Origin: an uncultured virus (IMG/VR IMGVR_UViG_3300021963_000098)
Lineage: Duplodnaviria > Heunggongvirae > Uroviricota > Caudoviricetes
Strand: one strand, 5' to 3'
DNA: 64,000 nucleotides
Virus record (IMG/VR): IMGVR_UViG_3300021963_000098
Shown: positions 32,367-37,303 of the stretch, piece after piece
Position numbering within the stretch: the stretch's first letter is position 1
Layout: every line of letters begins with the position of its first letter
The notes under the pieces: model-generated
The model's database searches: none
What the model saw: the letters and a program-made list of their open reading frames with translations, nothing else
Told to the model about the DNA's origin: nothing
Made by a program: the position numbers and the translations under genes

Positions 32367-32876
32367 ATGTCTACACTTAAAGAACTCACCCAAGAAAATC
32401 ACCGCAAGGCAGAACGCTCTGCCTTTGTTGGTGCCATGATGAAAAATCAGCTTACTCCAAATCAATGGACACGCTATTTGGCCTGGAAACGCGACATACT
32501 GCTTTTTCTTGATGCCAAATTAAACCTAAACAGCAAACACCCGGAATTTGATCGCACTCAACAATTTGAAAAAGATATAATAGATACTGATGGTGGCGAT
32601 TCGGAATTACATGCAACACATGACTATATTGAGCACATCAACAGCAATCTTAAAGACGCCTGGGCTCATGTGTATGTGCATTACCTTGGGGATCTTCGCG
32701 GAGGACAAATGCTGAAGAAAATTGTCAAACTGCCAATGAGTCATGTTGAGTATACCGATGCAGAAGGACTTGAAGCAATTATCAGATCGCATCTGACCGA
32801 TGACTTGGTTGATGAAGCTAATAAAGGTTTTGAATTGACCATGCAGGCCATGGAAGAGATAATGACTCATGAGTAA
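32367..32876 (+). CDS. hemO: Heme oxygenase
   Basis: LKELT...H.KAE (proximal His) and AHVYVHYLGDLRGGQ distal helix motif. Confidence 0.92.
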   Translation: MSTLKELTQENHRKAERSAFVGAMMKNQLTPNQWTRYLAWKRDILLFLDAKLNLNSKHPEFDRTQQFEKDIIDTDGGDSELHATHDYIEHINSNLKDAWAHVYVHYLGDLRGGQMLKKIVKLPMSHVEYTDAEGLEAIIRSHLTDDLVDEANKGFELTMQAMEEIMTHE

Positions 32877-33540
32877 AGTATGGAACACCATGCTTGAGTT
32901 GCAAGCAAACATAGAACAGCAACTGAACAAGATTGGAAATCCGGTAGATGAAGGCCACACGTTTGATTGGCCAAACCATGTATGGGATTCGCCTGTGTTT
33001 AGAAGAGCACACCTTGACGCAGTTGATGCACGTGATACCAAGGGTCTCTACATGTTACACGTCACCGTGTTCCCACACGTCATTGACCCCAGTCCTATAT
33101 TTGGATTTGACATCATCTGTGGCGAACGCAAAATAACTGGATGTTTTCATGATTTCAGCGCCAGCGCAGACAAAGAACATGCAATGATGACTTGGTTTCA
33201 AGATTATGCCAAACAATTTGCGTGGCGCAAGGAACGTGAGTTACCAGAGTGGGCCAAGCGCATATTCAGCCCAGGAATGATTGCTGCCGGTAATGTCAGC
33301 GATGAATTGGAAATAGATCAGATATTACAGATTGTATCTACTACTCTGCCTTGGTATTTGGATAATGTTGGAAAAACACGCGGCCAAGGTAATCCACGAG
33401 AAATACTAGAAGCACAAAATTATTACTGCAACAATCAACGACAGAATCCACACACTCCTCGTGTGATGCAAAGTCTAGGTTTTGATGAGAACACTGTTTA
33501 TCGATTCATAAACGATTGTCTGTTTCCTGATTTAGTATAA
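32869..33540 (+). CDS. pcyX: Ferredoxin-dependent bilin reductase, PcyX/PcyA family
   Basis: FRRAHL...LHVTVFP....PIFGFDI...KITGCFHDFS, RELPEWA..IFS, QNYYC.NQ.QNPHT; overlaps the heme oxygenase gene. Confidence 0.8.
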   Translation: MSKVWNTMLELQANIEQQLNKIGNPVDEGHTFDWPNHVWDSPVFRRAHLDAVDARDTKGLYMLHVTVFPHVIDPSPIFGFDIICGERKITGCFHDFSASADKEHAMMTWFQDYAKQFAWRKERELPEWAKRIFSPGMIAAGNVSDELEIDQILQIVSTTLPWYLDNVGKTRGQGNPREILEAQNYYCNNQRQNPHTPRVMQSLGFDENTVYRFINDCLFPDLV

Positions 33541-33913
33541 GCGCGGCAAACTTGTTGTGCCATATGATAAGCCTGCGTCGCTGACTAGCACTGCTTTCTC
33601 TATATACAGGATCTTCGGCTAACGTCTGCAATAGTTTGATATCCTCTAGGCAACACCATCGCAACAGCCGATTAAATTCTCGATCTTCTCTTACTGCCTT
33701 GATGATAGGATGATCCCATTGATCTCGGTTGGCAAGATGTCTAGATTCCAAATACCAACGCTCTATCCAACTGATATTGTCCTTGTATGTTTTTTTCAAC
33801 ATAGGATTGATCAGTCTTTTATCCCAGCAGTGATACAAATCTACGCCCCGCTTGGTTACAGGTGCCTTGGGTGTTTTGGGAAAAACAATTATTTCAGCTT
33901 CAGTCGTTGACAT
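33506..33913 (-). CDS. Hypothetical protein
   Basis: 135-aa ORF, last gene of the minus-strand operon; converges on pcyX with 35-bp overlap. Confidence 0.6.
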   Translation of the reverse strand: MSTTEAEIIVFPKTPKAPVTKRGVDLYHCWDKRLINPMLKKTYKDNISWIERWYLESRHLANRDQWDHPIIKAVREDREFNRLLRWCCLEDIKLLQTLAEDPVYRESSASQRRRLIIWHNKFAALILNQETDNRL

Positions 33914-34388
33914 GTTGATCTAGCCATTTCTCCATGTTGACCAACTTGCTCATGAAACTGCTATTCTGCACCAGCTGTTTGCTTTTGTGATGCAGTGGTT
34001 TTGGTTGTATACCAAGCGGTAACCAACAGTAACCATCGCTTTCATGATCCAGCACAGGAAGGAATTCTTTTTCTACCACCAAGCAAAAGGTGTCGTAGAT
34101 GAACTTCTTGTCTTTGCTAACGTATCTATGTAATGGTACGATTTTGTTCCATTCGGTTATGCCTGTTTCTTCTTGACACTCTCTAAGTAGCGTATCTCTG
34201 GGACTTTCTTTCGGATTACTGCGGCCACCCCATAGACCCCAAGTGCCGCTCCACTTTTCTTCTGTGCTACGCAACTGCCAGCAGTATCTGTGCGTGTCTA
34301 GTGCATAGATCAAGCCGCCAGCGGCTCGGGTTATACCAGCAGGCGCCAGTATCCCGGTTGAAATATTCCCTCGTAACTCAGTATCCAT
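33900..34388 (-). CDS. Nudix hydrolase
   Basis: Nudix box WGLWGG....ES......RECQEETG; start uncertain. Confidence 0.85.
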   Translation of the reverse strand: MDTELRGNISTGILAPAGITRAAGGLIYALDTHRYCWQLRSTEEKWSGTWGLWGGRSNPKESPRDTLLRECQEETGITEWNKIVPLHRYVSKDKKFIYDTFCLVVEKEFLPVLDHESDGYCWLPLGIQPKPLHHKSKQLVQNSSFMSKLVNMEKWLDQHVND

Positions 34389-35677
34389 TGTCCGTCCATG
34401 AAAGCTAATTGCTGATTGCTTGCAATATTTAATACATATTCAACTGCGGTAGAAGCAGCCGCATCAAAACTCACTACCCAGGCGCTGCCGTTGTATTCAA
34501 TGATGTCTTCAGGGTTGGCAACAAGTCCGCCCCATGCAGGTATCTCAGCAGGTGATGACACAACTATGTATCGTTGTCCTACTGCTGCCGCAGGCAAACC
34601 ACTGCCTGGCGCCGCACGTGTTGGATCTATAACACCGTCAATGGCCGCACGTGTGTTAGACGGCAAACTGTCCTGGTCAATGTCAACCAACAGTTTGTTT
34701 GGATCTGTAGGATGCGATGACAAGATGCCAATGTACTCACCGCCCCACACACCAGGACGATCTTGTCGATTAACACGTACTTGGCTGATGCCTTCTCTTA
34801 GTCCACCGTACGATTCTAAAAATTTATTCCAAAGCAACAGATCGCCGCCTGCTGAATTTTTTAGATCTCTAGTGAGCAAGGTAAGTTCACCATTGGCCAG
34901 TCGAAGAGCACGTTCAGGATCTGTGACACTTTGCCACTTGGATTGAACGTCGCTGATATAGGTGTCATCTAGCAGTTGATTAAGTTCGTCTTGGTCGCCA
35001 GCACGAATGGTGTTGATCACGTTGTAGATCAACTGCTGGCGTTGTACCATTGCAGGAGGATTGATAAAGATAGGCAAGTTGAATATCATGCTGGCCACAT
35101 CCAACACATCATCTGTTCCTGTAGGCACTTGTCGCACACTCCACACTGTGTTAATCAGTTCCACAAAGTTCATGCGACTCCAGTCAAACACGTTGTCGTT
35201 GTTGCGCAGGTCCAATGAAGGATTAAACAGCACCAATATCTGTTCCATCAGCTGTAACTTTTGATCAGTGTTTGATGTCCATACGTCTACCTGTACGTTT
35301 AGGTCATATGGCACCGGCATGTGGCGTTTGATAGTATATGTCTGTCCCATTTGGTCTAAGAATTGACCGCTGGCAGCATCATACTGTTTTTCATACACCT
35401 GAACTTGATCCGTATGCGTGGGATTGAGTCTGCGTTCAGGTGAAGGCAATAGCTCTGTGATATACACAGCAATGAAGGGCACAGTATTCATTGTGTTGTC
35501 GCTGTTGTTCTTCAAGATGTGTGCAGCCATACGATTTATATCACCGTATCGAACAGGGACCTTTTGATATATGTCTAATCCGTTTTCATCTTTGCCCATC
35601 TTCACGCTGAAGCCTGCAAAGAATCGCATGAACTGTTGTAGGTAACGACGTATTTGGCGATCGTAGAAATAATTGAT
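34331..35677 (-). CDS. Tail terminator/sheath stabiliser (T4 gp15-like) with C-terminal extension; probable non-AUG start
   Basis: KVPVRYG, MPVPY.L...VD.W....DQ.LQ.MEQIL..FNP; frame open upstream of ATG 35629 encoding INYFYDRQIRRYLQQF, resembling the T4 gp15 N-terminus. Confidence 0.8.
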   Translation of the reverse strand: MNYFYDRQIRRYLQQFMRFFAGFSVKMGKDENGLDIYQKVPVRYGDINRMAAHILKNNSDNTMNTVPFIAVYITELLPSPERRLNPTHTDQVQVYEKQYDAASGQFLDQMGQTYTIKRHMPVPYDLNVQVDVWTSNTDQKLQLMEQILVLFNPSLDLRNNDNVFDWSRMNFVELINTVWSVRQVPTGTDDVLDVASMIFNLPIFINPPAMVQRQQLIYNVINTIRAGDQDELNQLLDDTYISDVQSKWQSVTDPERALRLANGELTLLTRDLKNSAGGDLLLWNKFLESYGGLREGISQVRVNRQDRPGVWGGEYIGILSSHPTDPNKLLVDIDQDSLPSNTRAAIDGVIDPTRAAPGSGLPAAAVGQRYIVVSSPAEIPAWGGLVANPEDIIEYNGSAWVVSFDAAASTAVEYVLNIASNQQLAFMDGQWILSYEGIFQPGYWRLLV

Positions 35678-35685
35678 GGTGATAT

Positions 35686-35711
35686 CAGCGGTTTTAGACC
35701 GCTGCCTCCTT
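35686..35711 (-). promoter_or_regulatory. SD (AAGGAGG) plus perfect 7-bp hairpin upstream of the gp15-like gene
   Basis: Minus strand AAGGAGG-CAGCGGT-CTAAA-ACCGCTG. Confidence 0.7.
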
Positions 35712-36242
35712 GTTTAACCAAACACGCTTACCATCAATGACTTTCCAGGTTTTACCTCCGGATGTCCGTCTATTGACTTCTTTCATGATGTCTTTCTTTT
35801 TTTGCTTCTGTTCTTCATTTAATACCCATTGGTTCTTTTTACCTTTATGAGAAGGTTCTTTGTGCTTTTCAATGCCGCTATTTTGTTCTCTACGTCTGGC
35901 ATGGGCATCGCGCTGTGCTTGACTCATACGCTTTTTACTTTCCTCTGAATGTAGTTTATTTCCACCAGCCTGTCTGATGTTGAATCCATTTTGGTATACA
36001 TCGTATTTTATAGCGTACATTTCTTCAAGGGTATTTAATTCGTCTAGTGTGTTGGCTTGGTCAAGCACCTCAAAAATAAAAGAGTCAATTCCATATTTGC
36101 GTATTGCACTATGCAAATGATATCCCTTCTGAGGATTTCTGCTTGCAGAAATGTGCTCAAGTCTTCTTACATTGGGATCTTGTATAGTTTGCCCAATGTA
36201 ACACTTGCCCGTAACAATGTGAGTAAATTTGTAAATGAACAT
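35694..36242 (-). mobile_element. Free-standing GIY-YIG homing endonuclease with NUMOD3-like motif
   Basis: FIYKF...GKCYIGQT....RR.EH; HSEESKKRMS; sits between gp14-like and gp15-like genes. Confidence 0.9.
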
Positions 36243-37303
36243 TAGAAGTCTGTCCTTGGTTTAACTACACCGCTGATTGGTTGTCTTGTTGGATAGGCCT
36301 GGCCGTCAATGTTGACGCCCTGGGTATCATTGTTGATAAAGCCACCTGCATTTACTGAGCGTGCCACTACATCTGTTCTTGTTGGGAATACATTATCATA
36401 CAATCTTGCCCAACGTCCGCCGCGGTACACAAACAAGCGGTTTGGCAAGAAGTCAGTTCGTATAAACATTTCACCCTGTTGCGGATTGTTTGGAAATATA
36501 ACACCGCTAGCAATTGGTGCGCCGTAGTACTGTTCAAAGTCGTTGGCATCAGCTGGGCCATTTGGATCAGGCGGATTTTCATAGTTGAACAGTGACCCGA
36601 CATCTGGATACATGTCGGGTACTTCTTGTGTTGCGGCCTCAACGATTGCATCAGAAATTTCTTTTTCTTTGACATAGGTGCTGATTTGATTTTTCAAGCT
36701 GTCAGGGTCAGCTGCCTGTCCAAGTATGTCTTTGTATTCTTGTGCGTCGGTCAACGGAGCCGCTTTCACACGCCACAAGTGTGGCCACCAAGTTTGTGAG
36801 TAGCCTTCTGCTGCCTTGCTGGCATCTTGTACCACATACCACTTGTTGATAGCAGGAGCATTGGGATCAAGCAAGGTGTCGTCGCGCTGATGAGGAACTT
36901 CAAACACGTCACCTGCCATGATTTTGCGACCCAGTCGTTCGATCATGTCATTTAGATGGAACGTGATAAACAGCACATCGGTATTGATGAACAGACCAAA
37001 TTGTGTTAGATCAAAATCGTTGTCGCCTACATTGTATACACCGCGAAGATCGTAGATGTCTTTGTCGTACTTGCGATCTCGGTTTTCCAGGAACAGCAGA
37101 TCCTGTATTTTTGTTTCATTGAACACATCATCGGCTTGATAGTTGGGCTGGGTCGGATCACCTGTTTCTCCCTGCGGATCAGGACCAATGTATTTGTGTA
37201 TCAAGATGGATGTTCCGCCAACCATGAACTGCTCTTTGATCGTGCGATCAATGAACTTGTAATCGTTGGTCTTATCTTTGCGCCAAAGGCTTAAACGTGG
37301 CAT
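36242..37303 (-). CDS. Neck/head-closure protein (T4 gp14-like)
   Basis: IQDLLFLENRDRKYD, FDLTQFGLF, GDVFEVPH; late promoter and GAGG RBS; synteny with gp15-like. Confidence 0.65.
   Translation of the reverse strand: MPRLSLWRKDKTNDYKFIDRTIKEQFMVGGTSILIHKYIGPDPQGETGDPTQPNYQADDVFNETKIQDLLFLENRDRKYDKDIYDLRGVYNVGDNDFDLTQFGLFINTDVLFITFHLNDMIERLGRKIMAGDVFEVPHQRDDTLLDPNAPAINKWYVVQDASKAAEGYSQTWWPHLWRVKAAPLTDAQEYKDILGQAADPDSLKNQISTYVKEKEISDAIVEAATQEVPDMYPDVGSLFNYENPPDPNGPADANDFEQYYGAPIASGVIFPNNPQQGEMFIRTDFLPNRLFVYRGGRWARLYDNVFPTRTDVVARSVNAGGFINNDTQGVNIDGQAYPTRQPISGVVKPRTDF

Follow-up and report, generated by a model that had tools for sequence, protein, structure and literature searches.

The 64,000-nucleotide stretch of DNA analysed here (the window; IMG/VR record IMGVR_UViG_3300021963_000098, from an uncultured virus) carries on its minus strand a free-standing homing endonuclease (HE) gene at the very beginning of a gene for a T4 gp15-type tail protein. 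Alignment of loci with and without the HE establishes that this mobile gene took the start codon of the tail terminator, as a preliminary description of the sequence had proposed. No canonical start codon is left in front of the conserved gp15 N-terminus. We are moderately confident that gp15 translation starts instead at an AUC codon, reached through a split Shine-Dalgarno (SD) sequence and a hairpin, and that this start is probably coupled to termination on the HE open reading frame (ORF). The features involved are as follows.

36242..37303, minus strand: virion structural protein gene in the gp14 position, 353 aa (ORF call and PHROG 11591, E 4.5e-93)
36253..36257, minus strand: native gp15 SD sequence AAGGA, 10 nt 5' of the ATG at 36242, now serving the HE (sequence and HE-less relatives)
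35694..36242, minus strand: free-standing GIY-YIG (Seg-like) HE gene, 182 aa, starting on the former gp15 ATG
35675..36239, minus strand: 565-nt insertion relative to HE-less alleles, between the gp15 ATG and the second codon (junction alignment)
35705..35711, minus strand: SD sequence AAGGAGG within the last HE codons (K E A) (sequence)
35686..35704, minus strand: hairpin with a 7-bp stem CAGCGGT/ACCGCTG and a loop CTAAA holding the HE stop (centroid structure)
35675..35677, minus strand: ATC, proposed gp15 initiation codon, at the Met position of HE-less alleles (comparison of relatives)
34331..35677, minus strand: gp15-like tail sheath stabiliser / tail terminator gene, 448 codons counted from the ATC (PF16724, PHROG 11196)
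35645..35674, minus strand: co-conversion tract, 8 of 30 nt unlike the HE-less twin L018 and the same as the L002/L005-type allele (junction alignment)
35627..35629, minus strand: first in-frame ATG (rival start), 16 codons 3' of ATC 35677, i.e. the 17th codon of the ATC-started ORF

The homing endonuclease and its insertion site

The 182-aa protein matches PHROG 314 (E 1.2e-25) and PHROG 5123, 'homing endonuclease with GIY-YIG motif' (E 4.3e-15), and shares about 30% of its residues with SegD and GIY endonucleases annotated as such (tblastn, to E 1e-12); its match to the Pfam GIY-YIG family PF01541 (E 0.0065, 17.2 versus 22.6 bits) falls below the cut-off. Judged by these similarities, it is a free-standing Seg-like GIY-YIG homing endonuclease. 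The downstream protein matches PF16724 (E 1.1e-22), with profile position 1 at Tyr 35671 of the YFY segment, and PHROG 11196 (E 2e-102), where residues 1-447 counted from the ATC lie on profile positions 3-437 of 441. The T4 gp15 chains 4huh/3j2m are matched at E 2e-4, window residue 2 being aligned to chain residue 3. By its profile matches the gene is that of a T4 gp15-type tail sheath stabiliser / tail terminator, and the N-terminal YFY...RRY segment that the preliminary description had given for T4 gp15 is indeed covered by the PF16724 match. As for the upstream gene, previously called gp14-like, its position before gp15 was confirmed and its likeness to T4 gp14 was not: the 353-aa protein belongs with PHROG 11591, 'virion structural protein', and a Pfam search returned no family and a PDB search at E up to 1 no chain, with no similarity to T4 gp14 detected.

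A blastn search of the locus against cultured phages gave no match, its nucleotide-level relatives all being uncultured. The nearest cultured relatives at the protein level, 38% identical, are the jumbo phage Atu_ph07 and the PA5oct group of jumbo phages. In PA5oct the syntenic genes overlap as TAATG, gp15 starts with ATG AAC TAT TTT TAC GAC, and both syntenic proteins are annotated as detected by mass spectrometry.

In the window the TAA of the upstream gene (36244-36242) shares one A with the ATG of the HE gene (36242-36240), so that the HE gene begins, as had been noted earlier, at an ATG overlapping the upstream stop (TAATG, 36244-36240; ORF list and sequence); its ORF ends at TAA 35696-35694. 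We compared 16 IMG/VR loci that span the junction, excluding L016 and L017, which hold the C-terminus alone. The HE is absent from 14 of them, and in all 14 an in-frame ATG, mostly as TAATG, directly precedes (N/Q/AQT..)YFYD. The HE-less relatives read ...GACTTCTAATG followed directly by AAT TAT TTC TAC, and the window reads ...GACTTCTAATG, then 565 nt, then AAT TAT TTC TAC. The insert (36239-35675) lies exactly between the gp15 ATG and the second codon, with ATC as its last three bases. In this alignment ATC 35677 stands in place of the Met ATG of the HE-less alleles, where a Met codon had been expected, and the diverged relative L006/L021 has ATC at the same place. Since AAGGA also precedes the gp15 ATG in HE-less L001-L005, L009 and L018, the HE evidently now uses both the native AAGGA and the native ATG of gp15.

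The locus L018 represents an isogenic empty site. On the upstream side 1000 nt are identical to the window save one mismatch at -270, and downstream the two are identical again from +30 to the contig end. Eight of the first 30 nt after the junction differ, and there the window equals the L002/L005 alleles, which are otherwise 82-90% identical to it. Such a tract, unlike L018 and matching L002/L005, is the co-conversion signature of recent homing, and on this evidence a recent homing event inserted the HE cassette. The presence or absence of the HE is a polymorphism at one precise site in otherwise homologous genomes.

One could object that the HE-bearing allele is simply gp15-defective, being either a dead or complemented genotype or an assembly artefact. 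Its lack of a canonical start would fit, as would the co-occurrence of HE-bearing and HE-less alleles in the public run X4 (loose end at 36240), from which it follows that the junction site is polymorphic within one sample. On the other hand, the same sequence is found in independent contigs and runs. L008, an independent IMG/VR contig, is identical to the window; contigs of another public run, X3, cover 35450-36041 with one difference, at 35636, and those of X4 cover 35673-35835 with none, the ATC being unchanged in both. The ATC at 35677-35675 is thus no assembly error, a possibility that the preliminary description had raised. Moreover, 68 distinct modules of the kind described below all have intact gp15 frames, in phages whose gp15 is just 30-47% identical to that of the window, and HE remnants indicate long persistence after invasion. 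We regard a defective or artefactual allele as highly improbable.

Another explanation is that an intron or RNA processing removes the insert and restores TAATG-AAT. This might be suspected from an RNA-library contig, X20, that joins 36240 to 35671. The contig is, however, 90-95% alike and has CAA between the two sides, and because of this CAA at the joint it must be taken for an HE-less MQYFYD relative rather than for a spliced form; that allele exists as DNA in L001 and L018. Rfam gave no match at E up to 1 in 35300-36600, and neither a ribozyme core nor splice boundaries of a group I or group II intron were found, the insert ends (TTC...ATC) being without such boundaries. Remnants of about 70 nt also keep the module. 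Removal from the RNA seems to us barely credible. A second RNA-library contig, X19 (35679-35814), has adapter at both ends and an extra T after 35796 that would break the HE frame. Both contigs were rejected as evidence on transcript ends or expression of the window allele, X19 as adapter-flanked and X20 as an HE-less relative.

The gp15 reading frame and the Shine-Dalgarno/hairpin module

The gp15-like frame has a stop at 35716-35714 and is open from 35713. Between this stop and 35629 it encodes T R R Q R S K T A D I T I N Y F Y D R Q I R R Y L Q Q F. In agreement with the preliminary description, which had found no ATG, GTG or TTG there, the frame holds no ATG, GTG, TTG or CTG from 35713 to the first ATG at 35629; it does hold two in-frame ATC codons, 35683 and 35677.

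The 15 codons from the aromatic motif onward were compared across 18 HE-bearing relatives. F, Y, D, Q, R, R and Q are invariant in the 18 sequences, and synonymous codons are mixed at invariant residues (TTC 9/TTT 9, GAT 9/GAC 9, Arg as CGN and AGR). By this pattern the N-terminal codons are under purifying selection, hence translated, and a canonical start is absent upstream of them. This bears directly on the possibility that gp15 starts at ATG 35629 and lacks its 16 N-terminal residues, the upstream codons being an untranslated relic. ATG 35629 is the sole canonical start and the one that ORF calling picks. Yet the 15 upstream codons are under purifying selection in the HE-bearing lineages, with seven invariant residues; the position of this internal ATG is Met in just 7 of the 18 relatives and Ile in the other 11, so that a start there cannot be the solution of the family; the YFY segment is where the structures of T4 gp15, and likewise the Pfam and PHROG profiles, begin; and by eye no SD-like motif precedes 35629. 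A start at 35629 is in our opinion quite improbable.

In front of ATC 35677 we found all the elements that had been described: AAGGAGG, the hairpin CAGCGGT-CTAAA-ACCGCTG with the HE TAA in its loop, 8 nt, and the ATC. The stem pairs 35704-35698 with 35692-35686 around a loop at 35697-35693, and the spacer runs from 35685 to 35678. AAGGAGG, which occurs once on the minus strand and never on the plus strand in 64 kb, is followed after 8 nt by the HE stop and after 27 nt by ATC 35677. This linear distance of 27 nt falls to 8 nt if the 19-nt hairpin is excised, a spacing of the kind found in split SD sequences. When 81 nt are folded, this hairpin comes out as the centroid structure (z = -2.45; equalled by 4 of 200 shuffles), with a local energy of -11.3 kcal/mol. 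GGAGG is kept in 16 of 18 aligned modules while the codon before it varies (AAG, TTG, CTG, CGG, ATG), and this constancy argues for selection at the nucleotide level.

Two side observations concern the hairpin. Read on the plus strand (window 35686-35705), its complement followed by CCTCCTTGTT resembles a terminator by its score; a plus-strand terminator as the main function was rejected, the site being antisense to the gene cluster, its tail T-poor and the stems weak in other family members. Besides, the 3' arm contains an out-of-frame ATG, TTG or CTG in many family members (CCGATG..., e.g. in L037, L041 and L042), and it is often met at once by a stop (ATG TAA; ATG TAC TAA), giving start-stop mini-ORFs just before the ATC, ATT or ATA of the presumed gp15 start.

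Defining the module as GGAGG, 8 nt and a stop codon in a hairpin loop, we took a census of all loci collected. It gave 70 distinct 97-nt matches, from which two unrelated ones were set aside, leaving 68 junction modules. An in-frame ATC, ATT or ATA (ATH; AUH in the RNA) is present in 51 of the 68 (ATC 23, ATT 17, ATA 11). It lies exactly 15 nt after the stop in 43 of these 51 and at 16 nt, as in the window, in three; two or three ATH codons stand in tandem in 32 of them, e.g. ATC ATC ATC in L006 and ATT ATT ATT in L045. A single module, that of L198, has an in-frame ATG, 15 nt after the stop like the ATH of the others, and its hairpin is kept. There is no other in-frame ATG, GTG or TTG in the 68 modules, 67 of which have none at all. 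Thus, a near-cognate codon with SD support was found at the homologous Met position, except in L198, with its ATG, and in 16 of the 68 modules, to which we return below. The idea, already put forward in the preliminary description, that the mobile gene may supply a replacement initiation signal with a non-canonical start receives strong comparative support from this joint inheritance of module and ATH (51 of 68). A single base change would make AUG, yet 67 of the 68 variants are without it, which suggests that AUG is selected against; gene dosage or self-cleavage immunity may be guessed at as the cause.

The HE family set comprises 28 loci (L036-L063), with HEs 48-68% identical to that of the window. 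A gp15-like gene, 30-47% identical to the window's, lies 3' of the HE in 28 of 28, and a gene in the gp14 position is found in all 27 with upstream sequence. On this synteny the family is specific to the gp14/gp15-position junction. A DNA pattern for MFIYKFT added two chance loci only (L028 and L030). The HE tree has nine open forks and leaves undecided whether hairpin and ATH or ATG is the ancestral state. Ordinary overlaps (ATGA, TAATG or ATGTCTAA) occur in other family members, namely L025/26, L055, L058/60, L061 and L063.

Two kinds of variants help to locate the presumed start. The ATH codons of L041, L044 and L045 stand immediately behind an in-frame TGA (TGA, then ATT ATT ATT..), so that ribosome entry must fall there within 3-4 codons of the aromatic motif. 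In L039 (2014-2045) both hairpin and stop are lost, and AAGGAG is followed after 7 nt by ATT CAA TGG TTC TAT GAC (QWFYD); the HE ORF continues to a TGA inside the first codons of gp15. The direct spacing of 7 nt in L039 equals the helix-excised spacing of 7-8 nt elsewhere.

The HE stop is always 8 nt after GGAGG, so that a terminating ribosome has the SD sequence at pairing distance, and in the window this stop is 16 nt before the ATC. Decayed HEs with a recognisable start keep, in five cases out of five, an ORF from the HE ATG to the module stop (14 codons in L006, 49 in L027, 19 in both L114 and L122, 17 in L120; L128 is outside this count). Relative to the presumed gp15 start, the stops of the remnants lie anywhere between 16 nt ahead of it and an overlap of 1 nt. 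A nearby upstream stop and a maintained upstream ORF are thus both present, as in termination-reinitiation, and the maintenance of the remnant ORFs fits a relay from the upstream gene to the cassette ORF and on to gp15. According to PMC2268962, re-initiation needs fMet-tRNA, is helped by an SD sequence and is inhibited by IF3. Reinitiation, formerly listed as an alternative to an SD-hairpin start, is probably, as coupling, a part of the mechanism and not a separate explanation.

The position of the stop could also point to something else, namely that gp15 is a fusion to or continuation of the HE ORF, by a +1 frameshift, stop read-through or a hop over the hairpin in the style of T4 gene 60. 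Indeed, the HE stop lies in the hairpin loop just 3' of the SD sequence, 48 of the 51 ATH modules have gp15 in the frame of the HE stop, and the last HE codon resembles the landing codon in some of them (GUC/AUC in the window, GUU/AUU in L027); moreover, T4 gene 60 adjoins a defective endonuclease gene (as summarised in PMC3014915). However, the frame relation varies, being +1 in the window, L006 and L056 and +2 in L027. The TGA before the ATH codons of L041, L044 and L045 is in frame, L024 ends in GCU yet has AUC, and a tail terminator that forms rings would hardly tolerate an extension of 182 aa. We strongly doubt that gp15 is produced in this way.

The proposed initiation of gp15

We propose the following mechanism. 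A Seg-like GIY-YIG gene homed exactly between the gp15 ATG and the second codon and took the SD sequence and ATG of gp15, the HE start being coupled to the stop of the upstream gene through TAATG. From the place of the ATC we infer that gp15 could still be made at full length, with fMet at AUC 35677, the codon on which the cassette ends. The ribosome would be positioned by elements near this end, namely AAGGAGG, the abutting 19-nt hairpin with the HE stop in its loop, and the 8 nt that follow. By folding, the hairpin would bring the SD sequence from 27 nt to within 8 nt of the start, an arrangement like that of T4 genes 38 and 25. Most likely, the ribosomes would be those that have just terminated on the HE ORF, the SD sequence holding the 30S subunit while the hairpin re-forms. 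If supplied in this way, the output of gp15 would be low and dependent on translation of the cassette. The gp15 of T4 is present in six copies per virion. In E. coli, by the account of a preprint (10.1101/063800), AUC yields Met-initiated protein at about 0.1-3% of AUG, and such a yield suits a protein that is needed in few copies per virion.

Several points weigh against this mechanism. Because the family members share descent, the modules counted do not represent independent events. As a start codon AUC is weak, and IF3 discriminates against it (PMC2268962). Another in-frame ATC of the window, 35683, follows the hairpin by 2 nt and is also a possible start. Outside the window lineage most hairpins of the family have only 4-5 bp and energies of -4 to -7.5 kcal/mol. 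In the hairpin alignment 80% of the cells pair, versus 24-67% in slid controls, and 106 of 500 shuffles reach the same 80%. Pair 12:28 is unpaired in 14 of 18 sequences, the stem core CGG/CCG is invariant (three of seven pairs never vary), and two pairs have double changes. Covariation, which the preliminary description had suggested as a check on the hairpin, was thus not significant, and since it does not rise above shuffles we claim no support from it. The hairpin has a conserved position and a plausible structure, which covariation does not prove.

Two groups of junctions are a further difficulty. In the first, made up of the 16 modules without an in-frame near-cognate codon (L046, L056, L059, L134, L137, L142, L160, L164, L167, L169, L171, L175, L188, L192, L227 and L231), the sequence is ATCG, in which the ATC is displaced from the frame by one base and an in-frame TCG occupies the usual start position. 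Half of these modules have an in-frame TGA three codons upstream, and the gp15 N-terminus (DYFYDGQ..) is still conserved. Read as a four-base start, or with a +1 shift at initiation, ATCG would give M-(D/Q/E)-YFYD, the G being skipped. The second group is a sister set with GGAGG, 6-8 nt and GTG GAT TTT TTT ATG A, and with gp15 in the -1 frame (L052/L053, L054, the L114 group, L120, L122, L128 and L132; seven distinct sequences in 14 junction contigs). This pattern gave 20 matches, all with T7 and none with T8, of which six are unrelated; in the sister set 11 nt separate the SD sequence from the heptamer. L120 and L128, where the gp15 frame is open for just three codons ahead of FF, seem to require either a slip of -1 on U UUU UUU or slippage of the transcript; the product would be MDFFYDGQ. 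These two groups indicate that plain triplet AUH initiation is not the whole story for the family, and they lower our confidence that codon identity alone sets the start.

It could thus be that the same module places the ribosome while entry is not plain AUC 35677. The ribosome might use ATC 35683, or entry might be codon-tolerant and set by the SD/hairpin geometry, with a poorly paired fMet-tRNA that is lost or shifts frame (drop-off re-initiation or +1 shift). This would accommodate the 16 of 68 modules that have ATCG alone, with TCG in frame where the others have ATH, as well as the seven distinct sequences that need GTG and a -1 slip on T7; the second in-frame ATC of the window would also agree with it. 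One possible route is a start from an A-site aminoacyl-tRNA when pairing in the P site is unfavourable, as described in PMC10158994. In contrast, the window lineage has an in-frame ATC exactly at the Met position, where L198 has ATG, the tandem ATH codons in 32 of the 51 modules make codon identity seem to matter, and ATC 35683 is just 2 nt from the helix. We consider entry of this kind rather unlikely.

Starting again from initiation at AUC 35677, a broader hypothesis can be formulated, which we advance tentatively and do not ourselves expect to hold in full. The HE could belong to a portable start-replacement cassette of uncultured jumbo phages, which would take the SD sequence and AUG of an essential tail gene and make gp15 translation cassette-dependent, a form of addiction. 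The start would be deliberately non-AUG, with the ribosome placed by the SD/hairpin geometry and not by the codon. The variants would then form a natural series of initiation-linked recoding: AUC, AUU or AUA in frame, AUCG as a four-base or +1 start, and GUG with a -1 slip on U7 three codons in. Addiction to translation of the cassette would explain why decayed elements keep a mini-ORF.

Relation to known systems and neighbouring genes

Each part of the proposed mechanism has a known counterpart. The split ribosome-binding sites (RBS) of T4 genes 38 and 25 (Nivinskas et al. 1999; Malys & Nivinskas 2009) are, as summarised in PMC3014915, the hairpin-bridged precedent that the preliminary description had claimed. 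The SD-to-start distances are 22 and 27 nt there, against 27 nt here, and the hairpin cuts them to 5 and 11 nt, against 8 nt here; in both systems the SD sequence lies in the 3' end of the upstream gene. In contrast, the T4 genes start with AUG and their structure is native to the phage, whereas in the window the start would be AUC, with AUU or AUA in relatives, the upstream stop lies in the loop, and the module is part of a mobile endonuclease cassette.

A similar comparison can be made with the Seg (GIY-YIG) and Mob (HNH) HEs of T4-like phages. In the account given in PMC2988022 these are intergenic free-standing genes that overlap the upstream stop (UAAUGA for mobE; UAAUG here), with presence/absence polymorphism and co-conversion of the flanks. 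Unlike the present HE, they are described there as lying between genes, with the start signals of the neighbours intact and with RNA hairpins that sequester the RBS of the HE itself. The window's HE takes the SD sequence and ATG of the host gene and would supply a substitute.

As for the start codon, the E. coli genes infC and pcnB (AUU starts) share with gp15, as its start is proposed here, a near-cognate AUH, low output and discrimination by IF3. They are cellular regulatory genes with a normal contiguous SD sequence, and AUC and AUA are, in the account of 10.1101/063800, not known as natural starts there; here the near-cognate codon would start an essential virion gene and be brought by a mobile element. 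In the bypass of T4 gene 60, which lies beside the defective endonuclease gene mobA, a recoding signal made of a hairpin and a stop is likewise tied to HE insertion in an essential gene region; it is a 50-nt hop within one polypeptide (PMC3014915), whereas the evidence at the window favours new initiation, the frame relations and in-frame stops arguing against a hop. Finally, the coupling of M13 genes V and VII resembles that proposed here in its use of just-terminated ribosomes, in the help of an upstream SD sequence and in its sensitivity to IF3; the M13 start is an AUG next to the stop (PMC2268962), while 15-16 nt and a hairpin arm precede the non-AUG start here.

Taken together, the system is best described from its sequence as known parts newly combined: a split RBS of the T4 38/25 type, infC-like AUH initiation and termination-reinitiation. 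In the openly accessible full texts searched, we found no description of an endonuclease at the gp14/gp15 junction and none of one that supplies the start of its host gene. Free-standing HEs are usually thought harmless because of their intergenic placement; this one occupies the place where an essential virion gene has its start codon, with what appears to be its own substitute signal. If the proposed mechanism is true, the family would offer a large natural set of AUC, AUU and AUA starts in an essential phage gene, to be compared with the two confirmed AUU starts, and those only, that the preprint 10.1101/063800 counts for E. coli. It would also be a mobile version of the T4 split-SD device and a route by which a selfish gene makes its own translated ORF indispensable. 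For annotation, it would mean that gene callers truncate gp15 to the first ATG, here and in no fewer than 67 related variants of the module. For frame choice at initiation, the out-of-frame ATCG and GTG-T7 variants could serve as a testable entry.

Some observations concern the rest of the window. An SD-like 4-mer lies upstream of 27 of its 47 long ORFs, against a background of 11%; the phage uses SD-led starts. Most of the long ORFs (42 of the 47) are on the plus strand, the gp15 gene cluster being on the minus strand. Directly 3' of gp15 and overlapping its 3' end, as in PA5oct, is a NUDIX hydrolase gene (33900-34388, minus strand), and the order structural protein, gp15, NUDIX forms a conserved synteny block. 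Near the tail genes lies a gene for a ferredoxin-dependent bilin reductase (32869-33540, plus strand; PF05996, E 7.8e-22); as an auxiliary metabolic gene it may give a clue to the host or habitat of the phage.

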